DNA from: Candidatus Poribacteria bacterium | GTDB lineage: Bacteria > Poribacteria > WGA-4E > WGA-3G | Reading direction: 5' to 3' | NCBI GenBank assembly: GCA_965197475.1 | Contig: CBDANF010000003.1 | Coordinates: forward strand, 2,925,971 to 2,989,970 | Length of the DNA stretch: 64,000 nucleotides | Part shown: positions 3,710-44,842 of the stretch, piece by piece | Layout: each line of letters opens with the position of its first letter | Numbering within the stretch: the first letter of the stretch is position 1 | Notes under the pieces: generated by a model | Databases searched by the model: none | What the model was told of the DNA's origin: nothing | The model's input: the letters and a program-made list of their open reading frames with translations, nothing else | Position numbers and translations under genes: made by a program

Positions 3710-4594
3710 ATGAATTGGGCGCGGATTACTGTAACAACTTCTAATGACGCATCTGAAGCTGTTGCAAACTATTTATTTGAAATGGAGACTTTCGGTGTTG
3801 AACTGAAAGACGCTGCCGATTCAACAACTTCTCTCACCGCATATTATCCGCTGGATGACCGTGTAAACACAAGAGTTAAAAATCTTAGAGATTTTCTCTC
3901 TAAACTGCCAACGTGGGGCATCCAACCACATCCTGCGAAAATTGACTTAAAACGGGTTGAATCTGAAGAGTGGACAGATGCGTGGAAGTCAGCTTTCCCA
4001 CCGCAGCGGATCGGCAAACGTCTACTTATCGCACCAACTTGGCATAAAATCCCCCCTGATGAGGCACGTATTCTAATCCGACTTGATCCTGGTATGGCAT
4101 TTGGCACCGGTTACCATCCGACTACACGTTTATCATTGGAAATGTTGGAGCAAACGATTGAGCCGCATCAACACGTCGCGGATATCGGAACAGGTTCCGG
4201 TATACTTGCAATTGCTGCTATAAAGTTAGGCGCAAAACAAATTGATGCGATTGAACTTGACCCGACAGCAATTCCTGTAGCAGAAACAAACTTCGCCATT
4301 AATGGTGTGGCGCAACAAATTCGTTTGCATCAAGGCGATGGAATAAAGACTGCCGATGGCAAATATCATCTAATTGTTGGGAATATTCTAACAAAAGTGA
4401 TTCTTCCTATTATTCCACATTGTCCTTCGCGATTGCGACCCGAAGGACACATCATTTTTTCTGGAATTTTGGATTCAGAACTGCAAGAGGTTCAGGAGGT
4501 ATTGGCGGAAAACGGATTGCAATGTATCCATGTGATGCGTGAAGCAGAAGCAGAAGTAATGTGGGTTGCAGTCTTAGCGCGCTTCCTTCGCTAA
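3710..4594 (+). CDS. prmA: Ribosomal protein L11 methyltransferase
   Basis: 294 aa. PrmA layout with SAM motif DIGTGSGILAIAA and GMAFGTGYHPTT. Confidence 0.9.
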   Translation: MNWARITVTTSNDASEAVANYLFEMETFGVELKDAADSTTSLTAYYPLDDRVNTRVKNLRDFLSKLPTWGIQPHPAKIDLKRVESEEWTDAWKSAFPPQRIGKRLLIAPTWHKIPPDEARILIRLDPGMAFGTGYHPTTRLSLEMLEQTIEPHQHVADIGTGSGILAIAAIKLGAKQIDAIELDPTAIPVAETNFAINGVAQQIRLHQGDGIKTADGKYHLIVGNILTKVILPIIPHCPSRLRPEGHIIFSGILDSELQEVQEVLAENGLQCIHVMREAEAEVMWVAVLARFLR

Positions 4595-23868: not shown

Positions 23869-23946
23869 ACTATCTGTATTGCATTAGTGTTAAGTCCGTG
23901 CTTCAGAATTGGTAAAACCTCCTATATAGGAAAGGAGTCTCATTTG

Positions 23947-26900
23947 ATGAAAAAACATATTTTTCGTTTTGCCATATTTACGTTAATCTGTCTATTCTTT
24001 TGTATGCTATCTGTTGAGTTTGTTTATGCTGGGATTGAAGCTTCTATTATACTTGATATAGACCTTAACGAAAATGGTCTCATGCGTGATATTGCGGCGA
24101 CAGCTACGCGTTTTTATGTCTTGTTTGCAGGCAGGCAACCGGAAATAGGAGGAACGTCCAATAGTGGATCGTCTTATATACGGAAAGTCTACGTTTTTGA
24201 CCATGAAGGAACACGTAAACCAGACGAGGAGTTTGAAATAGATACAGAACTGACACCATACAGCATTGCAGTAACAAATAAATTTATCTATATTTCATAC
24301 TGGGATAGTTCCGGTATTGATGCCTATGCGTTTGATGGTACGCGTTTACATGATGAGGGCTTACGTTATGCCTCTGCAGGTCAAAAAAGTAGTATAGCAG
24401 CAACAGAGACGCACATATATGTTTCAGATGTCTCTTATTTAGATGAAGTTGATATTTACAAGTTTAAAGATACACAAGGCGATCTAAACGCAAGGAACGT
24501 TTCCTGGGAGAAAGAATTTAAACTTACCACAAATGAGAGTCTTAGAGCTTTCATCGCCGCAACAGATACCCGTGTCTATATCCAAAATCCTAACGATTCT
24601 ACAATCTATGTCTACGATACCCGGGACGGTGGTAGACGCGCACGTGAAGATTTCGTACACTGCTTATGGACTGGGCTAAGGAAAGAATCTATTTACGTCC
24701 CCTCACGCTATTTATCAGGCATTACAACAACACCATTAGGTGGAAAATTGTATATGTTAATTTCCCGATCAAGGGATGATGGAATAGAGGGACGCCAACT
24801 TAAGGTCTATAGGTATTCTATTCCGGAAGAAAATGCTGCACGTCCTGAGGTCTTTTTGCCTGCAAAACCGCCTCGCAGAGCAAGTTATTATTTCTATTTG
24901 CCGCCTTCTGGTTCCGGGATAGCTGCGACTGATACAACCGTCTATATAGGAGCTGATGGTTCACGTTATTTTGGTCGTGCTGCTACAATACATGCCGAAA
25001 CCTATTCCGATGGGGTACCGGGCAGTTTATTCGCAGATGCCGGCAAACTGAGAGGTAATATATCCGTAACCTATCCTCATCTAGGTTCTTCCGGTATGAC
25101 AGTTGACTATAACAATATCTATCTGCTTATTCGTCGGGCATCTGATGTACTTACTCAAGAACACAACTATGCCGTTCGACACTGTTTACTTAATTCAGAT
25201 GGAACTATTCATGGTGGTAAGACGACATTAAGAGATCTTCAACTACCACTTGCAATGGAAAATTTTAAGAATGGAATAGGGCTAGCTATTGACTCAGAAG
25301 GAATTCTATACGTGATGGCTGCTGGTGAAAATTACAAAGGACCTCCGCTAATCTATCGATATAAACCTTCATTGGATTCTCCACAACATAGTCAAGCTTT
25401 GCCTGGTAACCCTATCTTGTTACATCCTGACCATAAGGCTCCATGCGGTATAACGATTGTAAAAAACCGCGCTTATGTTCTGGATAGGGCGTTTATAACT
25501 GATGAAGGCACCCCTCGATTGTACGCAAAGGTTTTTGTCTACGATTTGGATGCCCACGATGTATTTGAGTACTTACCTGAGGAGAGTTTTTTAGTAAATG
25601 CCCGAATAGGAAATCAGACAATCATACCGTATGATTCAGGTATTGCTGTAAATGGAGACACATTTTTCATCTCAATGAGAGCAGAGTGGCCTTCCAATTA
25701 TAAACATGTTCTTGTCTACGGTCCTCTTGCAGCACCGAGTTGGGGGCCCATACGCGCAGATACAATTCAGCGTAGGCAACCCTATGGTGGGGACATTAGA
25801 AGAATGTCAATAGTGGCTACAAATGGTAGTGACTACTACAAATACCAGGCAATCGAAGGTATTCCATGGATTCTTTCACTGGATTTTGACTTTGTATTTG
25901 GCAATCCTGATCCTTCCATTACCTTTAAAACAGGTTATAAAAAACCAGAATGGTTGACCTTAAAGGATGGTGTTCTATCAGGTACCCCTTCATCAGCAGG
26001 TAAGTTAACAATTGAACTCACTGCCACCAACGAACAAGGAAGTACGGATGAAAGTATCACCTTAAACGTTGGTCCGGGGGTTGTGGCACCGAGTTGGCAT
26101 GATTTCTCAGTGCCAGAGATAAGGATACACGATGCTTGGTCATTAACCTTAACTGACTTGGTTACTGGTAATCCGACACCGGAGATATATTTTACACAAG
26201 GATACACACCACCTGACTGGTTAAAGCTAAGAGAAGGCGTGTTATCAGGGACACCGCCAAAGGCGGGTACATATTCTATCCAAGTTACCGCTGCCAGTGC
26301 TCTCAGACGCCCTGGCTATGTAAAGTGGGCGGATATTGTGATATATTTGGTTGTCAAAGGTCCAACATCTCCTAATTGGGCACTTGATTCCATGAACGAT
26401 ACTGCACAAGGTATCGCCGCTACGGACAACCGGATCTATGTGACAGACCTTATTGATGACAAAATCTATGTTTACGGACACGATGGAGAGCGATATGTTG
26501 CTCAGGATATAGACCTCAAGACACTCACAGAAAACCCAATCGGTATCACTGCTACGGTGACACATATCTATATTGTTGATAACAGCGAGGATATCGTCTC
26601 AATTTTAGATGTTACAGAAACAGGTTCTGTCGGCAATTTCAAGCTTGACCCCGATAATAGAGGTCCAACCGGTATTGCAGCGACAGCAAGACGACTTTAT
26701 GTTGTTGACCACGAGGATGATAAGGTCTATACCTACGCACACGACGGTACACGGCACCCTACTGAGGATGTTAACCTGCACAAACATAGTGAACCCACCG
26801 GTATTACAGCGACAGCGACACGACTTTATGTTGTTGACGGTGATGATGACAAAATCTATCCCTATGAATATGATGGCAAAATGAAGAACAGTGAAATTGT

Positions 26901-28737
26901 TGAACTTGTTACAGAAAACAGAAGTCCAACTGGTGTTACTGCAACACCAGCGCATCTGTTTGTCGCAGATATTATTGACCAGAAAGTCTATTCATATCCG
27001 ATCCCTGGTGTTACCGAGGTTGTTGTAACTGTAGGCGCGCCGAGTTGGAAGCCCGTGTCAATTCCCGAAGCAGTGAAAGGTTCCCATTGGACGCTCTCCT
27101 TAGCAGATTTCGTAAAAGGGGACCCAACGCCACAGATCTACTTTACAGACGGTTATACGTCATCTAACTGGCTTACGTTGCAAAATGGTGTGCTTTCAGG
27201 CACCCCTACGATGGCTAACACTGAATATATCAAAGTTACCGCAACAAATAGTAAGGGAAGCGCAGACATAACAGTACCGCTTTCTGTGTCGCATTCAGAA
27301 TATACATCCTGGGACCTCAACCCCGAAGAAATTTATGTAAATACCATTGCCAGCACAGAAGAGTTTGTCTATGTGTTTTATGGGACCCAGAATAATATAC
27401 CTCACATAAGTGCTTACACTCATGATGGAATTCGCCGTCCGGATAAGGATATAAAACTTGGAACGGAACATAGAAAAGACTCACACAGCATTAACACCCA
27501 CATCACCGCCTCTGAAACACATCTTTTTATGGTGGAGACATATAACGATTCCGATGAATCGAATCCAACTGGTGGAAGAAAAGTCTATGTGTTTGACATT
27601 ACAGGAACAGGCACTAAACGGCATTTTTTTCTAAGTAGGGAGGTAGGTATGTACACAGCGGAGATTGCTGCCACTACAACGCGCTTTTATGCAGTCAATT
27701 GGTCTGAAAGGAAATTCCATGTTTACGGACACGATGGAACACCTTACCCAAATGAGGATTTTACACTCAAGCCGCACGACACTGAAGGTACATTTTTTTT
27801 GGACGTAGCGACAACTGAAACGCGTATCTACGTTTTGTTAGCAAAAGTGAATGGTTATGTTCGTGGTAAAGTTTTTGTATATGGGCATGATGGCACACCT
27901 TATCCTGACGAAAACTTCAACGTCGGTGAAGTAAAAACTGTAGATATTACAGCAACATCAACGCATCTGATGGCATATTCCGGTCCGTATCTTAGAGGCA
28001 TAAATACCGGCTCTATTTTTTACTTCCCACTTCCTGAGGCGGAAGGAAACACCGAAACAGCTGTTCATATCCAAGATACAACGCCCGCTTGGGATGTCAA
28101 TCAGGATGGAAAGGTTGATATCCAAGACCTAATTAAGGTCGCACAGTATATTGATGAAACAGAACTTTCTAATCCACAAGCAGACGTAAATGGAGATGGA
28201 ACAATTGATGTTCAAGACCTACTCATTGTTTCACAACATTTAGGAGAATCAGCTGAGGCAGCATCACCTATAAAAACAACTGCTTTGCGATTTCCTGCCC
28301 TTGTAAAAAACGTTGCAGATGGTGATGTCACAACGGAACTAATTCAAACATGGATAGACCTTGCGCGGATTTCGGACGATGGTTCGCCTGTTTTTCAGCG
28401 CGGTATTGCAAACTTAGAACGTCTATTAGCTGAGATGCTACCAGATAAGACAGAACTCCTCGCAAACTATCCGAATCCTTTTAACCCAGAAACGTGGATA
28501 CCTTACCATCTTGCTAAGGAAGCTGAGGTGCAAATTACTATTTACGATATAAACGGTGCTGTCGTGAGACAATTAGACCTGGGATTGAAACTCGCCGATA
28601 ATTATACGGACCGTTCCCGAGCTGCTTTTTGGGATGGACGCAATGCTGATGGTGAGAAGGTTGCAAGCGGAATTTACTTCTATCAACTCCGTGCAGGCGG
28701 CTATGATCACACCCGCAGAATGCTTATTGTTAAATAG
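23947..28737 (+). CDS. Giant secreted beta-propeller / Ig-like / dockerin-like protein with T9SS-like C-terminal domain
   Basis: RBS AAAGGAG and signal peptide MKKHIFRFAIFTLICLFFCML. Many GIAAT-x-RIYV-D..DDKIYVY.HDG blades and three Ig-like GY..P(D/E)WL.L..GVLSGTP segments. Two DVN(Q/G)DG..D.QDL repeats. C-terminal LLANYPNPFNPETWIPY...GIYFYQL. Confidence 0.85.
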   Translation: MKKHIFRFAIFTLICLFFCMLSVEFVYAGIEASIILDIDLNENGLMRDIAATATRFYVLFAGRQPEIGGTSNSGSSYIRKVYVFDHEGTRKPDEEFEIDTELTPYSIAVTNKFIYISYWDSSGIDAYAFDGTRLHDEGLRYASAGQKSSIAATETHIYVSDVSYLDEVDIYKFKDTQGDLNARNVSWEKEFKLTTNESLRAFIAATDTRVYIQNPNDSTIYVYDTRDGGRRAREDFVHCLWTGLRKESIYVPSRYLSGITTTPLGGKLYMLISRSRDDGIEGRQLKVYRYSIPEENAARPEVFLPAKPPRRASYYFYLPPSGSGIAATDTTVYIGADGSRYFGRAATIHAETYSDGVPGSLFADAGKLRGNISVTYPHLGSSGMTVDYNNIYLLIRRASDVLTQEHNYAVRHCLLNSDGTIHGGKTTLRDLQLPLAMENFKNGIGLAIDSEGILYVMAAGENYKGPPLIYRYKPSLDSPQHSQALPGNPILLHPDHKAPCGITIVKNRAYVLDRAFITDEGTPRLYAKVFVYDLDAHDVFEYLPEESFLVNARIGNQTIIPYDSGIAVNGDTFFISMRAEWPSNYKHVLVYGPLAAPSWGPIRADTIQRRQPYGGDIRRMSIVATNGSDYYKYQAIEGIPWILSLDFDFVFGNPDPSITFKTGYKKPEWLTLKDGVLSGTPSSAGKLTIELTATNEQGSTDESITLNVGPGVVAPSWHDFSVPEIRIHDAWSLTLTDLVTGNPTPEIYFTQGYTPPDWLKLREGVLSGTPPKAGTYSIQVTAASALRRPGYVKWADIVIYLVVKGPTSPNWALDSMNDTAQGIAATDNRIYVTDLIDDKIYVYGHDGERYVAQDIDLKTLTENPIGITATVTHIYIVDNSEDIVSILDVTETGSVGNFKLDPDNRGPTGIAATARRLYVVDHEDDKVYTYAHDGTRHPTEDVNLHKHSEPTGITATATRLYVVDGDDDKIYPYEYDGKMKNSEIVELVTENRSPTGVTATPAHLFVADIIDQKVYSYPIPGVTEVVVTVGAPSWKPVSIPEAVKGSHWTLSLADFVKGDPTPQIYFTDGYTSSNWLTLQNGVLSGTPTMANTEYIKVTATNSKGSADITVPLSVSHSEYTSWDLNPEEIYVNTIASTEEFVYVFYGTQNNIPHISAYTHDGIRRPDKDIKLGTEHRKDSHSINTHITASETHLFMVETYNDSDESNPTGGRKVYVFDITGTGTKRHFFLSREVGMYTAEIAATTTRFYAVNWSERKFHVYGHDGTPYPNEDFTLKPHDTEGTFFLDVATTETRIYVLLAKVNGYVRGKVFVYGHDGTPYPDENFNVGEVKTVDITATSTHLMAYSGPYLRGINTGSIFYFPLPEAEGNTETAVHIQDTTPAWDVNQDGKVDIQDLIKVAQYIDETELSNPQADVNGDGTIDVQDLLIVSQHLGESAEAASPIKTTALRFPALVKNVADGDVTTELIQTWIDLARISDDGSPVFQRGIANLERLLAEMLPDKTELLANYPNPFNPETWIPYHLAKEAEVQITIYDINGAVVRQLDLGLKLADNYTDRSRAAFWDGRNADGEKVASGIYFYQLRAGGYDHTRRMLIVK

Positions 28738-28868
28738 TATCAAATGACCATAGGATATCTGGAAGGTTGATGTTTATTGGCTTCCCAGCGATCATTAATG
28801 AGTGGGTTGCGTTGGGATCGCGAGCATCCTCTTTGAGAAATGATGCGTTTAGCGATAAACGTGTCTAA

Positions 28869-28897
28869 AGTATAGCAAAACCAGTAGCGGTTGTCAA
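28869..28897 (-). promoter_or_regulatory. Consensus sigma70-like promoter TTGACA-17-TATACT pointing out of the DUF1670 cassette
   Basis: On the minus strand the -35 TTGACA is at 28897-28892, the spacer is 17 nt, and the -10 TATACT is at 28874-28869. It lies downstream of the DUF1670 stop and faces the 3' end of the giant gene. Confidence 0.4.
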
Positions 28898-28964
28898 CCA
28901 TATTTTCAAGGCACCTGCCCCGGTTTTGCGAAGTAAAGTTCGTCGGGAACATAGGATTAGGGTC

Positions 28965-29849
28965 TCATTGGGCTTCTCCTTGGTGAGTGGCTTCATCGTT
29001 TGAGTCTGAATTGGCAAGGTCTGCATCTATGGCTTGGAGTTGGTGCTGCGGTATGAGGTCGAGATATTGAGAGATGACGCGTTTAGAAAGTCGTGTAATC
29101 TGTGAGATTTTATCAATATCTGCGGTTGCTTTCCGAACGACTTTGACGCTCTCATAATCGCGAATGTATCGGTCAACTGCCTCCTTAGAGTGTTTGGTCT
29201 TTGCGGCAATCCTGGGGGTGAGATGTCCTTGAAGATAGAGGGTTATGATCTCTTTCTTATGGGTAATAGCCCCCGATAAGTCATGGATATTGCCACGGGT
29301 GGGCAAGAGTTCTCCAGTGGTTTTTTGCCATTCATTAACATAATCACAGACAACGGCATCGCAGACATTGAGCAAAACTGCCAAGTCGAGTTGTGTCAAT
29401 AATGCCCCTTGGTCATAAGCTTGATGACACCAGCGGACCAAGCGATTGATCCGCAATTGCCGGGAGGTGAAACCGTTGCGAAAGGATTCAATATCCTCTG
29501 CGGCGAGGTAAGTCAGGATGACGGGTTTCATGCGGGTTTTGACGATGGACTTTCCTCTTTCTGGATGCTCTTCAATAGGGACAGCCATCCAAACGAGGTG
29601 TCCATAGCTCAGCAGCCGCTCCTCTGGGAGTGCGTCACCAGTGGCGAGTTTCTCCAAAGGAAGGGTAATCACGAAATAGTCCTCAACGGTCTTAAGAATA
29701 TCATCAACAATAGCTGTCGCCGTGACTTCGCCTTTGTCATAACCGTAGTCATTGAGAAAGCGATGGATCAGCAACTGTCGTAGGGATTTATCGTTGATGC
29801 GTCTGAACTTTTTCTCGTTGATTTGGGTGCGCGTCAAAGGTTTGCTCAT
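28965..29849 (-). CDS. DUF1670-like HTH protein (paralogue B)
   Basis: 294 aa. Its C-terminal half aligns with the upstream paralogue (QGALLTQLDLAVLL / QDALLSYEDLAVLL; TRGNIHDLSGAITHK / TRGAKHDMGPGLSHK). Family recognised from memory. Confidence 0.6.
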   Translation of the reverse strand: MSKPLTRTQINEKKFRRINDKSLRQLLIHRFLNDYGYDKGEVTATAIVDDILKTVEDYFVITLPLEKLATGDALPEERLLSYGHLVWMAVPIEEHPERGKSIVKTRMKPVILTYLAAEDIESFRNGFTSRQLRINRLVRWCHQAYDQGALLTQLDLAVLLNVCDAVVCDYVNEWQKTTGELLPTRGNIHDLSGAITHKKEIITLYLQGHLTPRIAAKTKHSKEAVDRYIRDYESVKVVRKATADIDKISQITRLSKRVISQYLDLIPQHQLQAIDADLANSDSNDEATHQGEAQ

Positions 29850-29852
29850 CAG

Positions 29853-30665
29853 AGTTCCTCCTTTTTTTTCTCCACGGGCTCTGGGTGAAGGAGTTGGGTC
29901 ATGCGATCGGTGTGTTGATATTCCTCGGACAGCGAGAGATACTCGCGGATCAGCCGGTCAGAGAGATGAGTGATGAGTGATGAGCCGTATCTGTGCGTTA
30001 GGAAAACCTTGATGATGGAGCGTGGCGACTTGTATTAAGTCCCTCAAGTAGCGGTAGACGGCCCGTTCGGAGTGGTTCGTCTTTTGCTCAATCTCGGTGA
30101 AGGTGTATGCTTTGAAGGACAACTCAAGAATCTGCGTCTTATGAGACAGTCCCGGGCCCATGTCGTGTTTCGCCCCGCGCGTCATCACGAAATAGCCGGA
30201 CTGCTTCAACGCTCGGATGTCGCGTTTGACGGTGGCAGGACTGGTAGTTAATAACACTGCCAAATCCTCATAACTCAGCAAGGCATCTTGGTCATAAGCT
30301 TCTTGGGTCAATCGGAGGATCCGATGCCGTCTGAGACCTGCGAGCCCATAAGTCGCTAAAACTTCAAGGTCGGCTTCAACATCGTTGAGTTTGAGTCGAC
30401 AGGAAACTTTTTTCGCTAAAGCGATGTGTTTGCCTGCGGGTTCCTCAGCGGCGACTGCCTCATAGCAGATTTGCCCTGAGGTAAGTTGCACATCGGCGTG
30501 CTGTTCAAAGTAGGTGGAAATCTGTTTATAGTAGGCTTCAGCAACGAGAGGCATTAGATTAAAGTCTGCTGAAATCTTCTGAATAATAGCGGCTCTGGCA
30601 TTCTTGGATTCCAGTCGATTGATACCGTAGGCGGTATCCTTCTTACGGTCCATATTGACCTCCAT
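29853..30665 (-). pseudogene. DUF1670-like HTH protein (paralogue A) with a frameshift from a 7-nt tandem duplication
   Basis: The ORF 29958-30665 stops inside GATGAGT GATGAGT GATGAG (29965-29984). Removing one 7-nt unit restores ...IRLITHLSDRLIREYLSLSEEYQ...EEL. That aligns with ISQITRLSKRVISQYLDL of paralogue B and ends in TGATG coupling with the next gene. Confidence 0.65.
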
Positions 30666-30789
30666 GAAGAAAGTGTCGGCGATGCAAATACATCTACCCG
30701 TTAGTTTAACGAATACTAATAGTATAACTCATGGGGTCATTTGATACAAACTATAAGTAAGTTGAAACCTATTTCCTAAATATATGCGT

Positions 30790-30812
30790 AGGCGCGCTTT
30801 GTAAGCGCGCCT
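30790..30812 (-). terminator. GC-rich 10-bp hairpin downstream of the small nuclease-like gene
   Basis: AGGCGCGCTT-tgt-AAGCGCGCCT. Only a weak T/A tract follows. Confidence 0.35.
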
Positions 30813-30912: not shown

Positions 30913-31242
30913 CTAACGAATTGCAGTTGGGACAATTTGAGCGATAAATTTCAAACTGTTTTCCAACTTTTCGATTGCCTCTGATTCGCGAGCTGTCCCA
31001 CTCTTGAGTTCAATCGAAACTCCCACAAGATTATTTTCAGTTGGAGAAATAAAAAAGAGAAGTCGGTCACACCTTTTTTCAGTTTTTTGGCGCAAATCAA
31101 ACTCATGTTCAAGATTTACAATCACCCGTTCGGATGGTATGTCATCCATGTCAACATTGCATCCTTCTCCACTGCATGCATCAACTAAACTACCTGTATT
31201 AAAACGTGCACGGAGTTCACCAAGAATTCTACTCTGATTCAC
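30913..31242 (-). CDS. Small (109 aa) PD-(D/E)xK-like protein, putative effector partner of the upstream ATPase
   Basis: CDRLLFF...(19 aa)...VSIELKSG gives a D...ExK pattern. Its start overlaps the ATPase stop by 14 nt. Confidence 0.35.
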   Translation of the reverse strand: MNQSRILGELRARFNTGSLVDACSGEGCNVDMDDIPSERVIVNLEHEFDLRQKTEKRCDRLLFFISPTENNLVGVSIELKSGTARESEAIEKLENSLKFIAQIVPTAIR

Positions 31243-32639
31243 GCTTAGTGTTGCCTTTCATTTCTTCAAGTCGATTTTGTAGACGTGCGGAACGGTTGTA
31301 AAGGTCCTCAGCGACATCCAAATATTCCATCGGTTCAACGCCGTCAATACGATTGTAAGGTATTTCTTCCACCTTTCCATTTTTCTGAAAATGCCAAATT
31401 CCAACTTGTTCTGTCTGAAGAGAAGTCGGCAGGTCGCTAACTTCCTGCCCTGCGTTCTCAAGTTCTCCTGCACGTATCAGATTCCCTATTTCCTGAAGTA
31501 ACCAATCGCTATGTGTTGTTATTATTATTTTCACGCCTGCCCGAACTAAACGTGCAAGAATGACTGCCATGCCTGCTTGGGCACCCGGGTGTAGGTGTGC
31601 CTCCGGTTCTTCAATGATCAGCGTATCACCTGGCTGTACAAGACTTCGGAGATATAGGACTAAGGGCGCAAGTTCAGATACCATTGAGGAAGATTGGCTG
31701 AGACGAAATTCTTCATTAGTGCCTTGTGGTAAATAACGAAAGTCCGGATACCCACTCGCTGAAGGTTTTAAGCGTATCTTTCCAGCAAGTACTTCAGTTT
31801 CCAAAGTTTCAGAATGTTGTTTCATCTCAGCATTCGGTTTTTTTGGTTCTTCGTAAAGGATAATTTTTTCCATAAAGTCTGCTATCACTCCTGACATAGT
31901 GGGAACCTCAGGAAAACGTTCGAAACCTACTCGGGTTGATCGCTTTACAAGCGAAGTTGCTATCACTCGATGACTTTGCATGATGCCGCTCCGGGCAGCA
32001 GGAAGGTAGTAACGGTTTCCTCCATTTTTGATGTTTCCCTTAAAACCATGTATTTTTTTTACTCCGCTTGTCAGTTCAACTCCCCAATCTCCGCTAAAAG
32101 TGAAATTAAAATTACCTTCACCTTTCCAGTCTGTGGAGATTGCCAATCCCTCAGGAATAAGAATCATAGTCTCGTTGAATGAACTATTAAGGATAACATC
32201 TGATTCAGATGTATTTAACTTGATACTCCAACCGTCTTGCTGTTTTTCATCAACCATCAGTGAAACAGTCATTTCATTTTTTTCTCCCGTTGTCAATCGT
32301 CTTAATTCCAAAATTGCATCAAAATCATAACAGTTTTTGAGTTCAGACTGTAGTTTGTCCCCAAAAACCTCTGCATCATCAATAATTGTCTTTAAGAGAT
32401 CTCGTAGTTCTGTTGGAAAATCTAACAATCTAAAGGCCCCTGTCACTGGTGTTTAGTTTTTTGAGCACATCCTGAACTTTTTGCTTTGCTGATGGACTCG
32501 CGTTTGTCAAAACAAAGTTCTGTAAAGCATGTAAAATACCTACAATCCCTTGGAGCCCAGATGGAAATAGAAGTTGGGGTTCTGTCATATCCGGAAATAC
32601 ACCGTACAAGGCGTACACCAGCGTAGAAAAATAAGTTTT

Positions 32640-33778
32640 CGGAATAAGTCGTTTTGGACTTGACAAAAGTTGGAAAAGTGCGCTAAACCCTTGTAAATAA
32701 AGGGTTTTCATAGTATAATATCAGTAAGAAAATAGGGGGTATCAACCCCCTATTTGAAACTCAAAAAAGCGAGTTGCTTTTCTGGTTCACACTTATCTGA
32801 TATTGTATCAGAAACTATCAGAAAAATGCAACTCCAAAAAACAGGAGTGTTTTCTGATGGATTTAATCAAGGTGATGAAGACGTTCTCAACGCAAGAGGA
32901 TTGCATCGAATATCTGGAGCGGCTCCGATGGAAAGAATCGCCAGAATGCCCGCATTGTCCAAGTCTAAACGTCCGAAGGCGGAACGAACACGAGGTTGGG
33001 CGTGTCGGACGCTGGAACTGCCACGATTGCCGTGCTACATTCAAGGTGACACACGGCACAATATTTCACGGCACGAAGATACCGCTCCAAAAGCGGTTTC
33101 TCGCTATCGCTCTCATGGCAAACGCAAAGAAAAGTTTGTCCTCCCATCAACTTGCGCGCGATTTAGGGATGAAACAGAAAGCTGCTTGGTGTCTAATGAT
33201 GGCTATACGCACAGAGATGGGAAAGGATAATGTCCTACTACAAGGGGTCATTGAAGCAGATGAAACCTATATCGGTGGTAAGCGTCGCAAAGACTATGAC
33301 CGGGAGGATGGTGAACCCCGTAAACGCGGACGCGGCACCGCTAAAGATGCCGTGCTGGGCGCAGTCGCACGTGGTGGACACGTCATCGCACAACTCGTAT
33401 CCAACGCCACTGGTGAGACGATCTCCGACTTCATCAACAGATTCGTCAATACCGAAGATTCTGAACTCATTACCGATCAGTATAGAAGCTACAACGAAAT
33501 CGGTAAGGAAATGAAACATGAGACACTTAACCGTAGTGAGAAATGGGAGGCTGGCGACATCCATACCAATACGATGGAAGGCTTTTGGTCTTTCGTCAAG
33601 AGGGCATGGTATGGACAACAACACCACTACTCAACAAGATACACGCCCCTGTATCTCGCAGAGGCAGGCTATAAATATAACTACCGAGAAACCAACATCT
33701 TTGAGAAGTTTCTCACCGAAAGTATAACGTGAGAAATCTGAAAAATAAAAACTTCCAAGTCCAAAACGACTTATTGCG
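32640..33778 (+). mobile_element. IS1595-family insertion sequence (1139 bp) with 8-bp TSD TAAGTTTT
   Basis: Terminal inverted repeats CGGAATAAGTCGTTTTGGACTTG and CAAGTCCAAAACGACTTATTGCG match at 22 of 23 positions. Direct repeats lie at 32632-32639 and 33779-33786. Confidence 0.9.
32857..33732 (+). CDS. IS1595-family transposase
   Basis: MDLIKVMKTFSTQEDCIEYLERLRWKESPECPHC zinc ribbon, then EADETYIGG, TDQYRSY and HTNTMEGFWS motifs. It is a close paralogue of the transposase at 61438-62319. Confidence 0.9.
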   Translation: MDLIKVMKTFSTQEDCIEYLERLRWKESPECPHCPSLNVRRRNEHEVGRVGRWNCHDCRATFKVTHGTIFHGTKIPLQKRFLAIALMANAKKSLSSHQLARDLGMKQKAAWCLMMAIRTEMGKDNVLLQGVIEADETYIGGKRRKDYDREDGEPRKRGRGTAKDAVLGAVARGGHVIAQLVSNATGETISDFINRFVNTEDSELITDQYRSYNEIGKEMKHETLNRSEKWEAGDIHTNTMEGFWSFVKRAWYGQQHHYSTRYTPLYLAEAGYKYNYRETNIFEKFLTESIT

Positions 33779-33949
33779 TAAGTTTTTCCTGTATTACTGG
33801 GACCAACAAATACCGTCAACGGGCGCAAATCGATATTGGCTTCCGCAATAGGTCCAAAATTCTCAACTGCAATTTCAACCTTCGGCTGCTCTTGTGTGTC
33901 TTTGACTTCGCTCATGGTCATCTCCTCAAAAATGATTTGTTTATGTAGG

Positions 33950-44748: not shown

Positions 44749-44822
44749 ACCCCCGTAGCTCAAATGGATTAGAGCAACTCTTTGCCGAAGGGTAGGTTAT
44801 GGGTTCAAGTTCCATCGGGTCT
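44749..44822 (+). tRNA. Degenerate tRNA-like gene, anticodon loop TTGCCGA (GCC, Gly-type)
   Basis: The cloverleaf can be drawn with a good D-arm (GCTC-AAATGGATTA-GAGC), anticodon stem ACTCT/AGGGT, and T-arm ATGGG-TTCAAGT-TCCAT. However, acceptor pairs 2:71 and 3:70 are mismatched (ACCCCCG vs CGGGTCT) and 53:61 is G:T. Confidence 0.4.
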
Positions 44823-44842
44823 TATATATAATACAAGCATGT

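Follow-up and report, generated by a model that had tools for sequence, protein, structure and literature searches.

A 2,021-bp unit in a 64,000-nucleotide stretch of a Candidatus Poribacteria genome (contig CBDANF010000003.1, positions 2,925,971 to 2,989,970; the whole stretch is called the window here, and all coordinates are given in its numbering) is very probably one copy of a site- and orientation-specific insertion sequence (IS), the only genes of which encode two paralogous proteins, OrfA and OrfB, each with multiple helix-turn-helix (HTH) modules and belonging to the DUF1670 family. The whole IS spans positions 28734..30754 on the minus strand, its genes being antisense to the gene it has targeted; these limits were taken from the extent of similarity across more than 75 copies and from empty sites. 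In the original prediction, made from the window alone, a 13-bp perfect inverted repeat was said to bracket two DUF1670 genes and possibly to delimit an unrecognized, non-canonical mobile unit. The arms (GTATCAAATGACC at 28737-28749, and its exact reverse complement at 30735-30747) were confirmed, as were the matches of both genes to PF07900, and across the 64 kb these two arms are the only exact copies of a 13-mer of the GTATCAAATGACC type. Between them lie two minus-strand genes, orfB (28965-29849) and orfA (29958-30665). The interior, judged by eye to be richer in GC, has a GC content of 0.49-0.52 compared with 0.42-0.43 in the flanks, and searches of Pfam, NCBIfam, and PDB sequences agreed with the statement that no recombinase is encoded inside. 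The suspected mobility is borne out by the multi-copy state of the unit, its varied flanks, and the existence of empty sites, which are described below.

The element is mobile, present in multiple copies of ~2.0 kb, and has sharp, conserved boundaries. OrfB homologues numbered 1,540, many of them encoded on unit-sized contigs (1.99-2.14 kb), and several distinct OrfB paralogues were found on single chromosomes; OrfA homologues showed the same pattern. A scan with one genome per species yielded 80 loci, all in metagenome-assembled genomes (MAGs) of Candidatus Poribacteria and with no more than ~10 copies per genome; in total, more than 100 copies, each in different flanks, are present in Candidatus Poribacteria genomes. 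When the window unit and its flanks were compared with the loci by blastn, similarity always began ~13 bp outside one arm and reached at least 5 bp past the other, i.e., the boundaries were constant among copies and the flanks variable. The original prediction had named three outcomes that would speak against mobility: a single-copy locus, a lack of empty sites, and a lack of conserved terminal repeats around other DUF1670 pairs. What was found is the reverse on each count, because the unit is multi-copy in many Poribacteria genomes with unrelated flanks, both orthologous and paralogous unoccupied sites exist, and related terminal repeats also enclose distant DUF1670 pairs of other phyla.

In ~1.6 Mb of related DNA that was fetched, 100 of 100 complete units bounded by inverted repeats carried the DUF1670 pair. 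No other cargo was found between DUF1670 ends in this DNA; the longer units of one genome hold nested IS of the DDE type. The fetched DNA also contained 21 orphan ends, most of which belonged to copies that had decayed, were truncated, reached a contig edge, or held a nested DDE-type IS; a few were chance matches with one mismatch or ends of more distant elements. In three loci of one genome (L218, L219, and L223; OZ244587.1), DUF1670 IS copies are interrupted at differing positions by another IS with a transposase-like open reading frame (ORF) of 336 aa; these units measure 2.5-4 kb and their orfB is truncated. A tblastn search with OrfB against 72,556 plasmids, cyanobacterial ones included, gave no match.

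The terminal inverted repeats consist of a perfect 13-bp core within asymmetric ends of 16-20 bp. The gene-proximal repeat, ATAGTATCAAATGACC (28734..28749), ranks among the two segments of the element with the highest conservation; every copy has AAATAG next to the 13-mer. The gene-distal repeat, GGTCATTTGATACAAACTAT (30735..30754; ATAGTTTGTATCAAATGACC when read inward), is likewise conserved in all copies and is four bases longer, such that ATAG-TATCAAATGACC at one end faces ATAGTTTG-TATCAAATGACC at the other. In the plus-strand sense of the window, the ends of 78 loci read gene…NNN-AA/ATAG-TATCAAATGACC…GGTCATTTGATAC-AAACTAT/AA-R-stop, with slashes marking the limits of the element. It had been predicted that the unit starts at the last base of the stop codon of the adjacent giant gene, which is true of the 13-mer arm but not of the element, as the latter already starts at 28734. 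The remark that no target-site duplication was found can be corrected: two bases, AA, are duplicated at 28732-28733 and 30755-30756.

Approximately 60 of 76 copies adjoin, with their ATAG-TATC end, the 3′ end of a gene on the opposite strand, the product of which ends in …AAYWDGxNxxGExVASGxYFYxLxAGxFxATRKMLIxK*. The giant protein of the window has a similar tail, and its C terminus matches TIGR04183 (Por_Secre_tail; 37 bits at a cutoff of 23, E 2.5e-9). The targeted context is thus the 3′ end of the giant gene (28468..28731, plus strand; ORF 23887-28737), which encodes a C-terminal sorting domain (CTD) of type A of the type IX secretion system (T9SS) and ends in …TRRMLIV. Past the distal end of the element, AA, R, and a stop codon followed in 61 of 66 independent insertions (AAGTAA in 28, AAATAG in 11, AAGTAG in 10, AAATAA in 7, and AAGTGA in 5 cases), beyond which there was no conservation. 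When the flanks of the 66 independent sites were joined, they matched the nucleotide profile of 72 unoccupied CTD gene ends, and with respect to the target gene all insertions were oriented alike. About 60 of the 66 have a CTD gene as their target, with the element placed in its last Lys codon. Among the paralogous CTD gene ends sampled via the tail of the giant protein, 74 of 80 were empty, all of these ending in Lys-stop; the remaining six carried a full or a decayed copy.

Empty sites were sought by joining the flanks of each occupied site and matching the product to the other fetched loci, which revealed contiguous matches spanning the junction. Seven pairs of occupied and empty sites, with flanks up to 87% identical, could be compared base by base, and in each of them xxx-AAR-stop stood against xxx-AA[ATAG…CTAT]AA-R-stop. 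For example, the empty locus L127 reads …ATACGG AAG TAA GC…, and the occupied locus L056 from another species, the flanks of which are 87% identical, reads …ATACGG AA[ATAG…IS…CTAT]AA G TAA GC…. In all seven pairs, the final Lys codon is split after its AA, and the element has AA on either side. Thus, occupied and empty sites differ by exactly the element plus the AA duplication. As the end of the element supplies A and TAG, the Lys codon and a stop codon are restored and the target protein remains unchanged, with the original R and stop being pushed to the far side.

In the window, AA copy 1 (28732..28733) represents the first two bases of the final Lys codon, and AA copy 2 (30755..30756) is located at the other end, both assigned from the comparison of occupied with empty sites and the second also from the survey of flanks. 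It is followed by the displaced third base of the original Lys codon (G) and the original TAA stop codon of the giant gene (30757..30760, plus strand), as AA, R, and stop are in 61 of the 66 insertions. Because the element extends from 28734 to 30754, the third base of the present Lys codon and the present TAG stop codon of the giant gene belong to the element. An exact-pattern scan of metagenome contigs for the window's own empty site found none, and the proteins of the window have no exact sequence on record; the nearest relative of the giant-gene tail, with no more than 65% identity, has an unoccupied site. A perfect GC-rich inverted repeat of 10 bp (AGGCGCGCTT-tgt-AAGCGCGCCT; 30790-30812) lies 30 nt past the displaced stop codon and may represent the original terminator hairpin of the giant gene, split off by the IS; against this role, no T-run follows the hairpin, and it was not called a terminator in the scan.

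Among the occupied and empty CTD ends of L001-L160, the third base of the original Lys codon was G in 43 and A in 18 occupied sites, and G in 34 and A in 38 empty ones. AAGTAA was the commonest target, with 28 of 66 occupied compared with 14 of 72 empty sites, and this excess of AAG and AAGTAA at occupied sites may reflect a target preference. Decayed remnants were also observed at CTD gene ends (L096, 4621-5106; L092, L142, L099, and L112), either as the 50-100 bp of the gene-proximal end followed by unrelated DNA or only as TAGTATCAAATGA(C); they are old insertions or imprecise deletions. At the left junction of one locus in OZ242335.1 (recovered as L063, L165, and L241), a full copy abuts the terminal remnant of an older one (…AAACTAT-AA-ATAGTATCAAATAACC…), which implies that the Lys-stop rebuilt by a first insertion can be used again as a target.

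CTD gene ends are not the target of all copies. One subfamily of the IS (OrfB 78% identical; L070-L080 and relatives, i.e., L170-L186, L211, and L227-L229) inserts instead into the loop of a genomic hairpin. A longer inverted repeat, GAAACCGAGTTTT…AAAACTCGGTTTC, was considered for this subfamily and rejected, as these arms also occur alone in the same genomes. The solo hairpin reads GAAACCGAGTTTT-TTCTTC-AAAACTCGGTTTC; in occupied hairpins, the loop is interrupted by the element, with duplication of TT, or AA if read on the other strand. The chemistry of insertion, in the sense of a 2-bp AA duplication and a fixed orientation, is thus retained, and it is the recognized context that has changed. 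In L172, solo hairpins at 4450, 4802, 5154, and 5507, i.e., every ~352 bp, suggest a tandem array.

More distant homologues were sought with a profile made from six sequences, and loci were retrieved from Saganbacteria, Ignavibacteriota/Melioribacteraceae, Actinomycetota, Neomarinimicrobiota, Chloroflexota, Bacillota, Methanosarcinaceae, Methanoperedens, and ANME-3, many of them on contigs of ~2 kb. Here, too, sharply bounded units recur: one of 1.73 kb is present in six copies with 99.7% identity in an actinomycete, copies of a 1.70-kb unit in ANME-3 are 99.9% identical, and a Melioribacteraceae genome holds near-identical units of about 1.9-2.05 kb. The best inverted repeats at these distant pairs have a core in common with the repeat of the window, of the TCA(A/T)ATGA type, from Poribacteria to archaea; the end repeats are TAGTATCAAATGATACC in Neomarinimicrobiota, GTATCAAGTGATACC in a MAG labelled Bacillota, TCGAATGAGCCGTAC in Actinomycetota, ATACTCCCATTTGACCYATAGG in ANME-3, AATACGTCAAATGACG in an archaeon, and TAGGTCATATGACCC in Clostridium. 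The asymmetry of the ends (ATAG versus ATAGTT(T/A)G) is also seen in Ignavibacteriota elements, and several of these distant elements adjoin T9SS-like tails (…KKMTLLK* and …VRKMILIK*). That the protein family and a related end motif go together in several phyla is the strongest reason to regard DUF1670 proteins as the cognate, transposition-specific proteins that bind the ends.

OrfB is an intact DUF1670 protein of 294 aa (28965..29849, minus strand; PF07900 E 7e-61, 205.8 bits), and OrfA (29958..30665, minus strand) is one cut to 235 aa (PF07900 E 8.4e-55, 186 bits; HTH_11). Both exceed the 25-bit gathering score of PF07900 and have weaker matches to HTH-family Pfam models; their mutual identity is 34%. 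In most copies, OrfA (269-270 aa) and OrfB (285-302 aa) are intact, and the orfA stop codon and the orfB start codon overlap in ATGA. In the window, the remainder of orfA is out of frame (29846..29964, minus strand); according to the frame translations, it would encode the last HTH, and its TGA overlaps the orfB ATG. An alignment with eight other copies traced the frameshift, and with it the truncation, to a private 7-bp tandem duplication at 29965..29984, where GATGAGT is repeated ~2.9-fold compared with ~1.9-fold in every other copy; in a comparison of unit lengths, the window copy measured 2,023 bp and other copies 2,015-2,016 bp. Since its OrfA lacks the last HTH, the window copy is probably defective, and it is probably immobile unless complemented by other copies. 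Among 12 intact copies from different subfamilies, the median ratio of nonsynonymous to synonymous substitution rates (dN/dS) was 0.095 for orfA and 0.097 for orfB, with dS up to 1.8; both genes are thus under purifying selection.

An exhaustive HMMER search of 1.84 billion representative proteins returned 1,010 DUF1670 clusters, mostly of 250-290 aa. Some members are natural fusions with three or two modules (P0253, P0255, P0262, and P0265, about 930-950 aa; P0302, P0356, and P0377, about 520 aa); no other enzymatic domain was found in these two- and three-module fusions. One DUF1670 protein among P0335 (400 aa) and the fusions just listed is joined to a zinc finger of the CHC2 (DnaG) type. 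Structures of both proteins were modelled with AlphaFold2 (AF2) using the paralogue families as alignment, an intact homologue standing for OrfA, and reached predicted local distance difference test scores (pLDDT) of 65 (OrfB) and 78 (OrfA). In the models, a pair of N-terminal helices, one long helix, and a beta hairpin accompany three HTH modules, one of which is winged. Residues that do not vary in either paralogue family or in distant members include those of an R-G…(H)D loop and an H-K pair, a further His, and two Tyr; picked out by conservation, they are a candidate active site. The invariant polar positions are E75, D99, D134, R163, D168, H175, K176, Y183, Y206, and Y240 in OrfA and E94, D155, R185, D190, H197, K198, Y205, Y228, and Y262 in OrfB. 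A role of the two proteins in defence or in phages was also considered and dropped, as PADLOC and PHROGs gave no meaningful match.

How might such an element move? OrfA and OrfB would act jointly as a hetero-oligomer; in favor of this, the orfA stop codon overlaps the orfB start codon, natural fusions occur, and the element has two ends that differ. The two proteins would bind both ends and the target, and would perform, or directly recruit, the cleavage and joining of strands; the asymmetric ends, the two different subunits, and the non-palindromic AA overlap together would explain the fixed orientation. Two routes would fit the 2-bp duplication. In one, the element would be moved by cut-and-paste or copy-out with a 2-bp stagger; in the other, a circular junction (…CTAT-AA-ATAG…) would recombine with the AA of the target, with the non-palindromic AA setting the orientation, similar to the central dinucleotides of serine integrases. 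A circular intermediate is possible. The element holds only DUF1670 genes, which are under selection and associated with its ends, and a catalytic fold is absent from the Foldseek matches. Tentatively, and at somewhat less than even odds, DUF1670 proteins could constitute a new class of transposase or site-specific recombinase composed of HTH-type modules and unrelated to DDE, HUH, serine, tyrosine, and DEDD enzymes, in which an OrfA/OrfB hetero-oligomer would carry out oriented insertion with a 2-bp stagger into a programmable context (CTD gene ends or a hairpin loop).

Several points weigh against the unit being a self-sufficient and new IS. Mobility was deduced by comparing sequences. Searching for the pattern of a circular junction or of tandem ends gave no match in metagenomes, and no circle or tandem dimer was found; in genomes, there were two real matches and one chance match, and the two real ones were rejected as dimers, that in L241 being a new copy beside the remnant of an old end and that in L240 an ambiguous short ATAGTATC stretch. 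Neither protein has a catalytic domain in Pfam, NCBIfam, PHROGs, or PADLOC, a profile search of PDB sequences gave no match, and Foldseek against the PDB found no catalytic fold, only HTH regulators, with best E values of 0.36 (OrfB) and 0.055 (OrfA); both AF2 models are of low confidence in their N-terminal halves. Last, the element may match an existing orphan entry in ISfinder.

The rival that survives best concedes mobility but places catalysis elsewhere: OrfA and OrfB would be regulators or factors specifying end and target, and a host enzyme or a transposase encoded at another locus would cut and join. Both proteins indeed resemble stacks of HTH and winged-helix modules, with no nuclease or recombinase fold detected; weak Foldseek matches included sigma factors, MntR/MarR regulators, the Pax paired domain, the DNA-binding domain of SETMAR, and resolvase HTHs. 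However, the pair and a related end motif co-occur over distant bacterial and archaeal phyla, which would call for a universal helper enzyme; no other conserved gene accompanies the units, and every sampled unit bounded by inverted repeats has the DUF1670 genes. Moreover, the invariant R, D, H-K, H, and Y exceed what plain HTH scaffolds usually need. External catalysis is therefore unlikely, and movement in trans, offered as an alternative in the original prediction, is in the same way rated as less likely than mobility encoded by the element itself.

Another rival assigns the decisive role to RNA. A promoter-like site (TTGACA-17-TGcTATACT; 28869..28897, minus strand) with 11 of 12 consensus matches and an extended -10 lies 103-136 nt inside the gene-proximal end and points outward to it; its function as a promoter is proposed from sequence motifs. 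A non-coding RNA (ncRNA) transcribed from it across the gene-proximal 130 nt could determine target choice or recombination, comparable to the bridge RNAs of IS110 or the omega RNAs of IS605. In favor of this, the -35 and -10 hexamers are conserved, their spacer is variable in sequence, and position and outward direction are kept in most copies of the main subfamilies. Both hexamers scored well in 41 of 76 copies, and most other copies of the main subfamilies keep the -10 and have the -35 shifted by one base. Against it, some copies, including the whole hairpin-targeting subfamily, have no match to the promoter, and the transcribed stretch is, the last 30 nt excepted, the least conserved part of the element. 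RNAalifold gave -11.45 kcal/mol with an unfavorable covariation term and a single compensatory pair, and the element has no Rfam match. Nor was a mimic or guide apparent: a position weight matrix of the 27-nt target scored below the 95th percentile of the null in 10 of 11 copies and just below it in the eleventh (4.9 versus 5.0), and gapped alignment of the subterminal 118 nt with 72 targets gave z values of at most 1.8 on both strands. An ncRNA in this role is thus very improbable. In a circle, the outward promoter would cross the joined ends into orfA; in the chromosome, the promoter-like site faces antisense into the T9SS cargo gene. The weakest rival, a chance repeat around two resident transcription regulators at an immobile locus, has in its favor only the small size of the 13-bp repeat and is already refuted, to the point of being negligible, by the more than 100 copies that share identical ends in unrelated flanks and by the existence of empty sites.

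The DUF1670 IS shares with the IS630/Tc1-mariner group a short length, terminal inverted repeats, duplication of a fixed dinucleotide, and a DNA-binding part of tandem HTHs; Pfam HTH_23 and HTH_29 match DUF1670 proteins weakly, and Pax and SETMAR are among the weak fold matches. In contrast to that group, no DDE/D (RNase H-like) domain was detected in Pfam, NCBIfam, or Foldseek, the duplicated dinucleotide is AA in place of TA, the proteins are two separate paralogues, and insertion, always in one orientation, depends on a much longer sequence context. In serine-recombinase elements (the IS607 family and large serine integrases), a non-palindromic 2-bp overlap fixes orientation and integration is site-specific. 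The DUF1670 IS resembles them in having a non-palindromic 2-bp overlap that would fix orientation and a defined integration sequence, but its ends are terminal inverted repeats of the classic kind, each genome offers it many target sites, and no resolvase or serine domain could be found, the only weak fold match of the serine type being to the HTH part of the Tn3 resolvase. Neither a phage-integrase domain nor a fold match speaks for a tyrosine recombinase, and the invariant R, H, K, H, and Y lie in HTH-like helices; in the unit as a whole, no domain or fold of a DDE, HUH, serine, or tyrosine recombinase was detected.

Elements of the IS110/IS1111 type are alike in their oriented, sequence-specific insertion into repeated sequences, including hairpins, and in the promoter, here a putative one, in a non-coding end. 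They differ in that neither a DEDD (RuvC-like) transposase nor a supported structured RNA (no Rfam match and a weak alifold result) was detected in the DUF1670 IS, and in that they generally lack the terminal inverted repeats present here. Membership in IS200/IS605 (HUH Y1 and/or TnpB, subterminal hairpins, and no inverted repeats) does not apply, as there is no domain match and the DUF1670 IS has inverted repeats. By analogy, the choice of target recalls TnsD of Tn7 (attTn7 at glmS) and the islands at tRNA 3′ ends, in which a safe site is used, a conserved coding sequence is recognized, and the product stays intact; the DUF1670 IS even provides the stop codon of its target gene. It differs from these in having no TnsA, TnsB, TnsC, TnsD, or integrase, and in targeting a motif in dozens of paralogous genes, not one essential gene. 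Orphan groups of ISNCY (e.g., IS892) may be comparable in make-up, as they likewise combine two small ORFs with terminal inverted repeats and have not been assigned to a catalytic class. Neither DUF1670 protein has a model in NCBIfam, from which PGAP names IS transposases, and homologues are called “DUF1670 domain-containing protein” by NCBI; other annotations read hypothetical or regulator, e.g., “biotin operon repressor.” In the literature that was searched, no paper was found that mentions DUF1670 or PF07900 or links them to any IS or transposase, and nothing relevant on IS of Poribacteria, on T9SS CTDs with IS, or on ISNCY/IS892. Judged against that literature and NCBIfam, the DUF1670 element probably represents a new IS family.

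Beside the DUF1670 IS, the window contains a second IS, of the IS1595 family, which splits a defence-type AAA ATPase gene (31229-33921). Its 26-bp inverted repeats (32637-32662 and 33756-33781) are 92% complementary, and its transposase (32803-33732) combines DDE_Tnp_IS1595 with a Zn ribbon. The split ATPase is similar to PD-T4-4_A and PDC-M47A; its N-terminal fragment with Walker A is encoded at 33634-33921 and its C-terminal fragment at 31229-32446, both on the minus strand. A 109-aa ORF overlapping the stop codon of the ATPase gene (30913-31242, minus strand) has a weak PADLOC match to PDC-M47B (E 0.0023) and no match in Pfam or NCBIfam; it may be the partner gene in a candidate two-gene defence system, now disrupted. 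The only Rfam match in the window is a tRNA gene (44749-44823, plus strand).

For DUF1670, a domain of ~1,000 protein clusters in bacteria and archaea, the element provides a biological role, and an IS family without a recognizable catalytic domain is a candidate for a new mechanism of DNA transposition. Insertion into the last codon, with codon and stop rebuilt, explains how ~10 copies per genome can be carried at little cost, and it is a natural example of precise, oriented, and scar-tolerant integration. The DUF1670 IS also accounts for the numerous 2-kb orphan contigs in metagenome assemblies.

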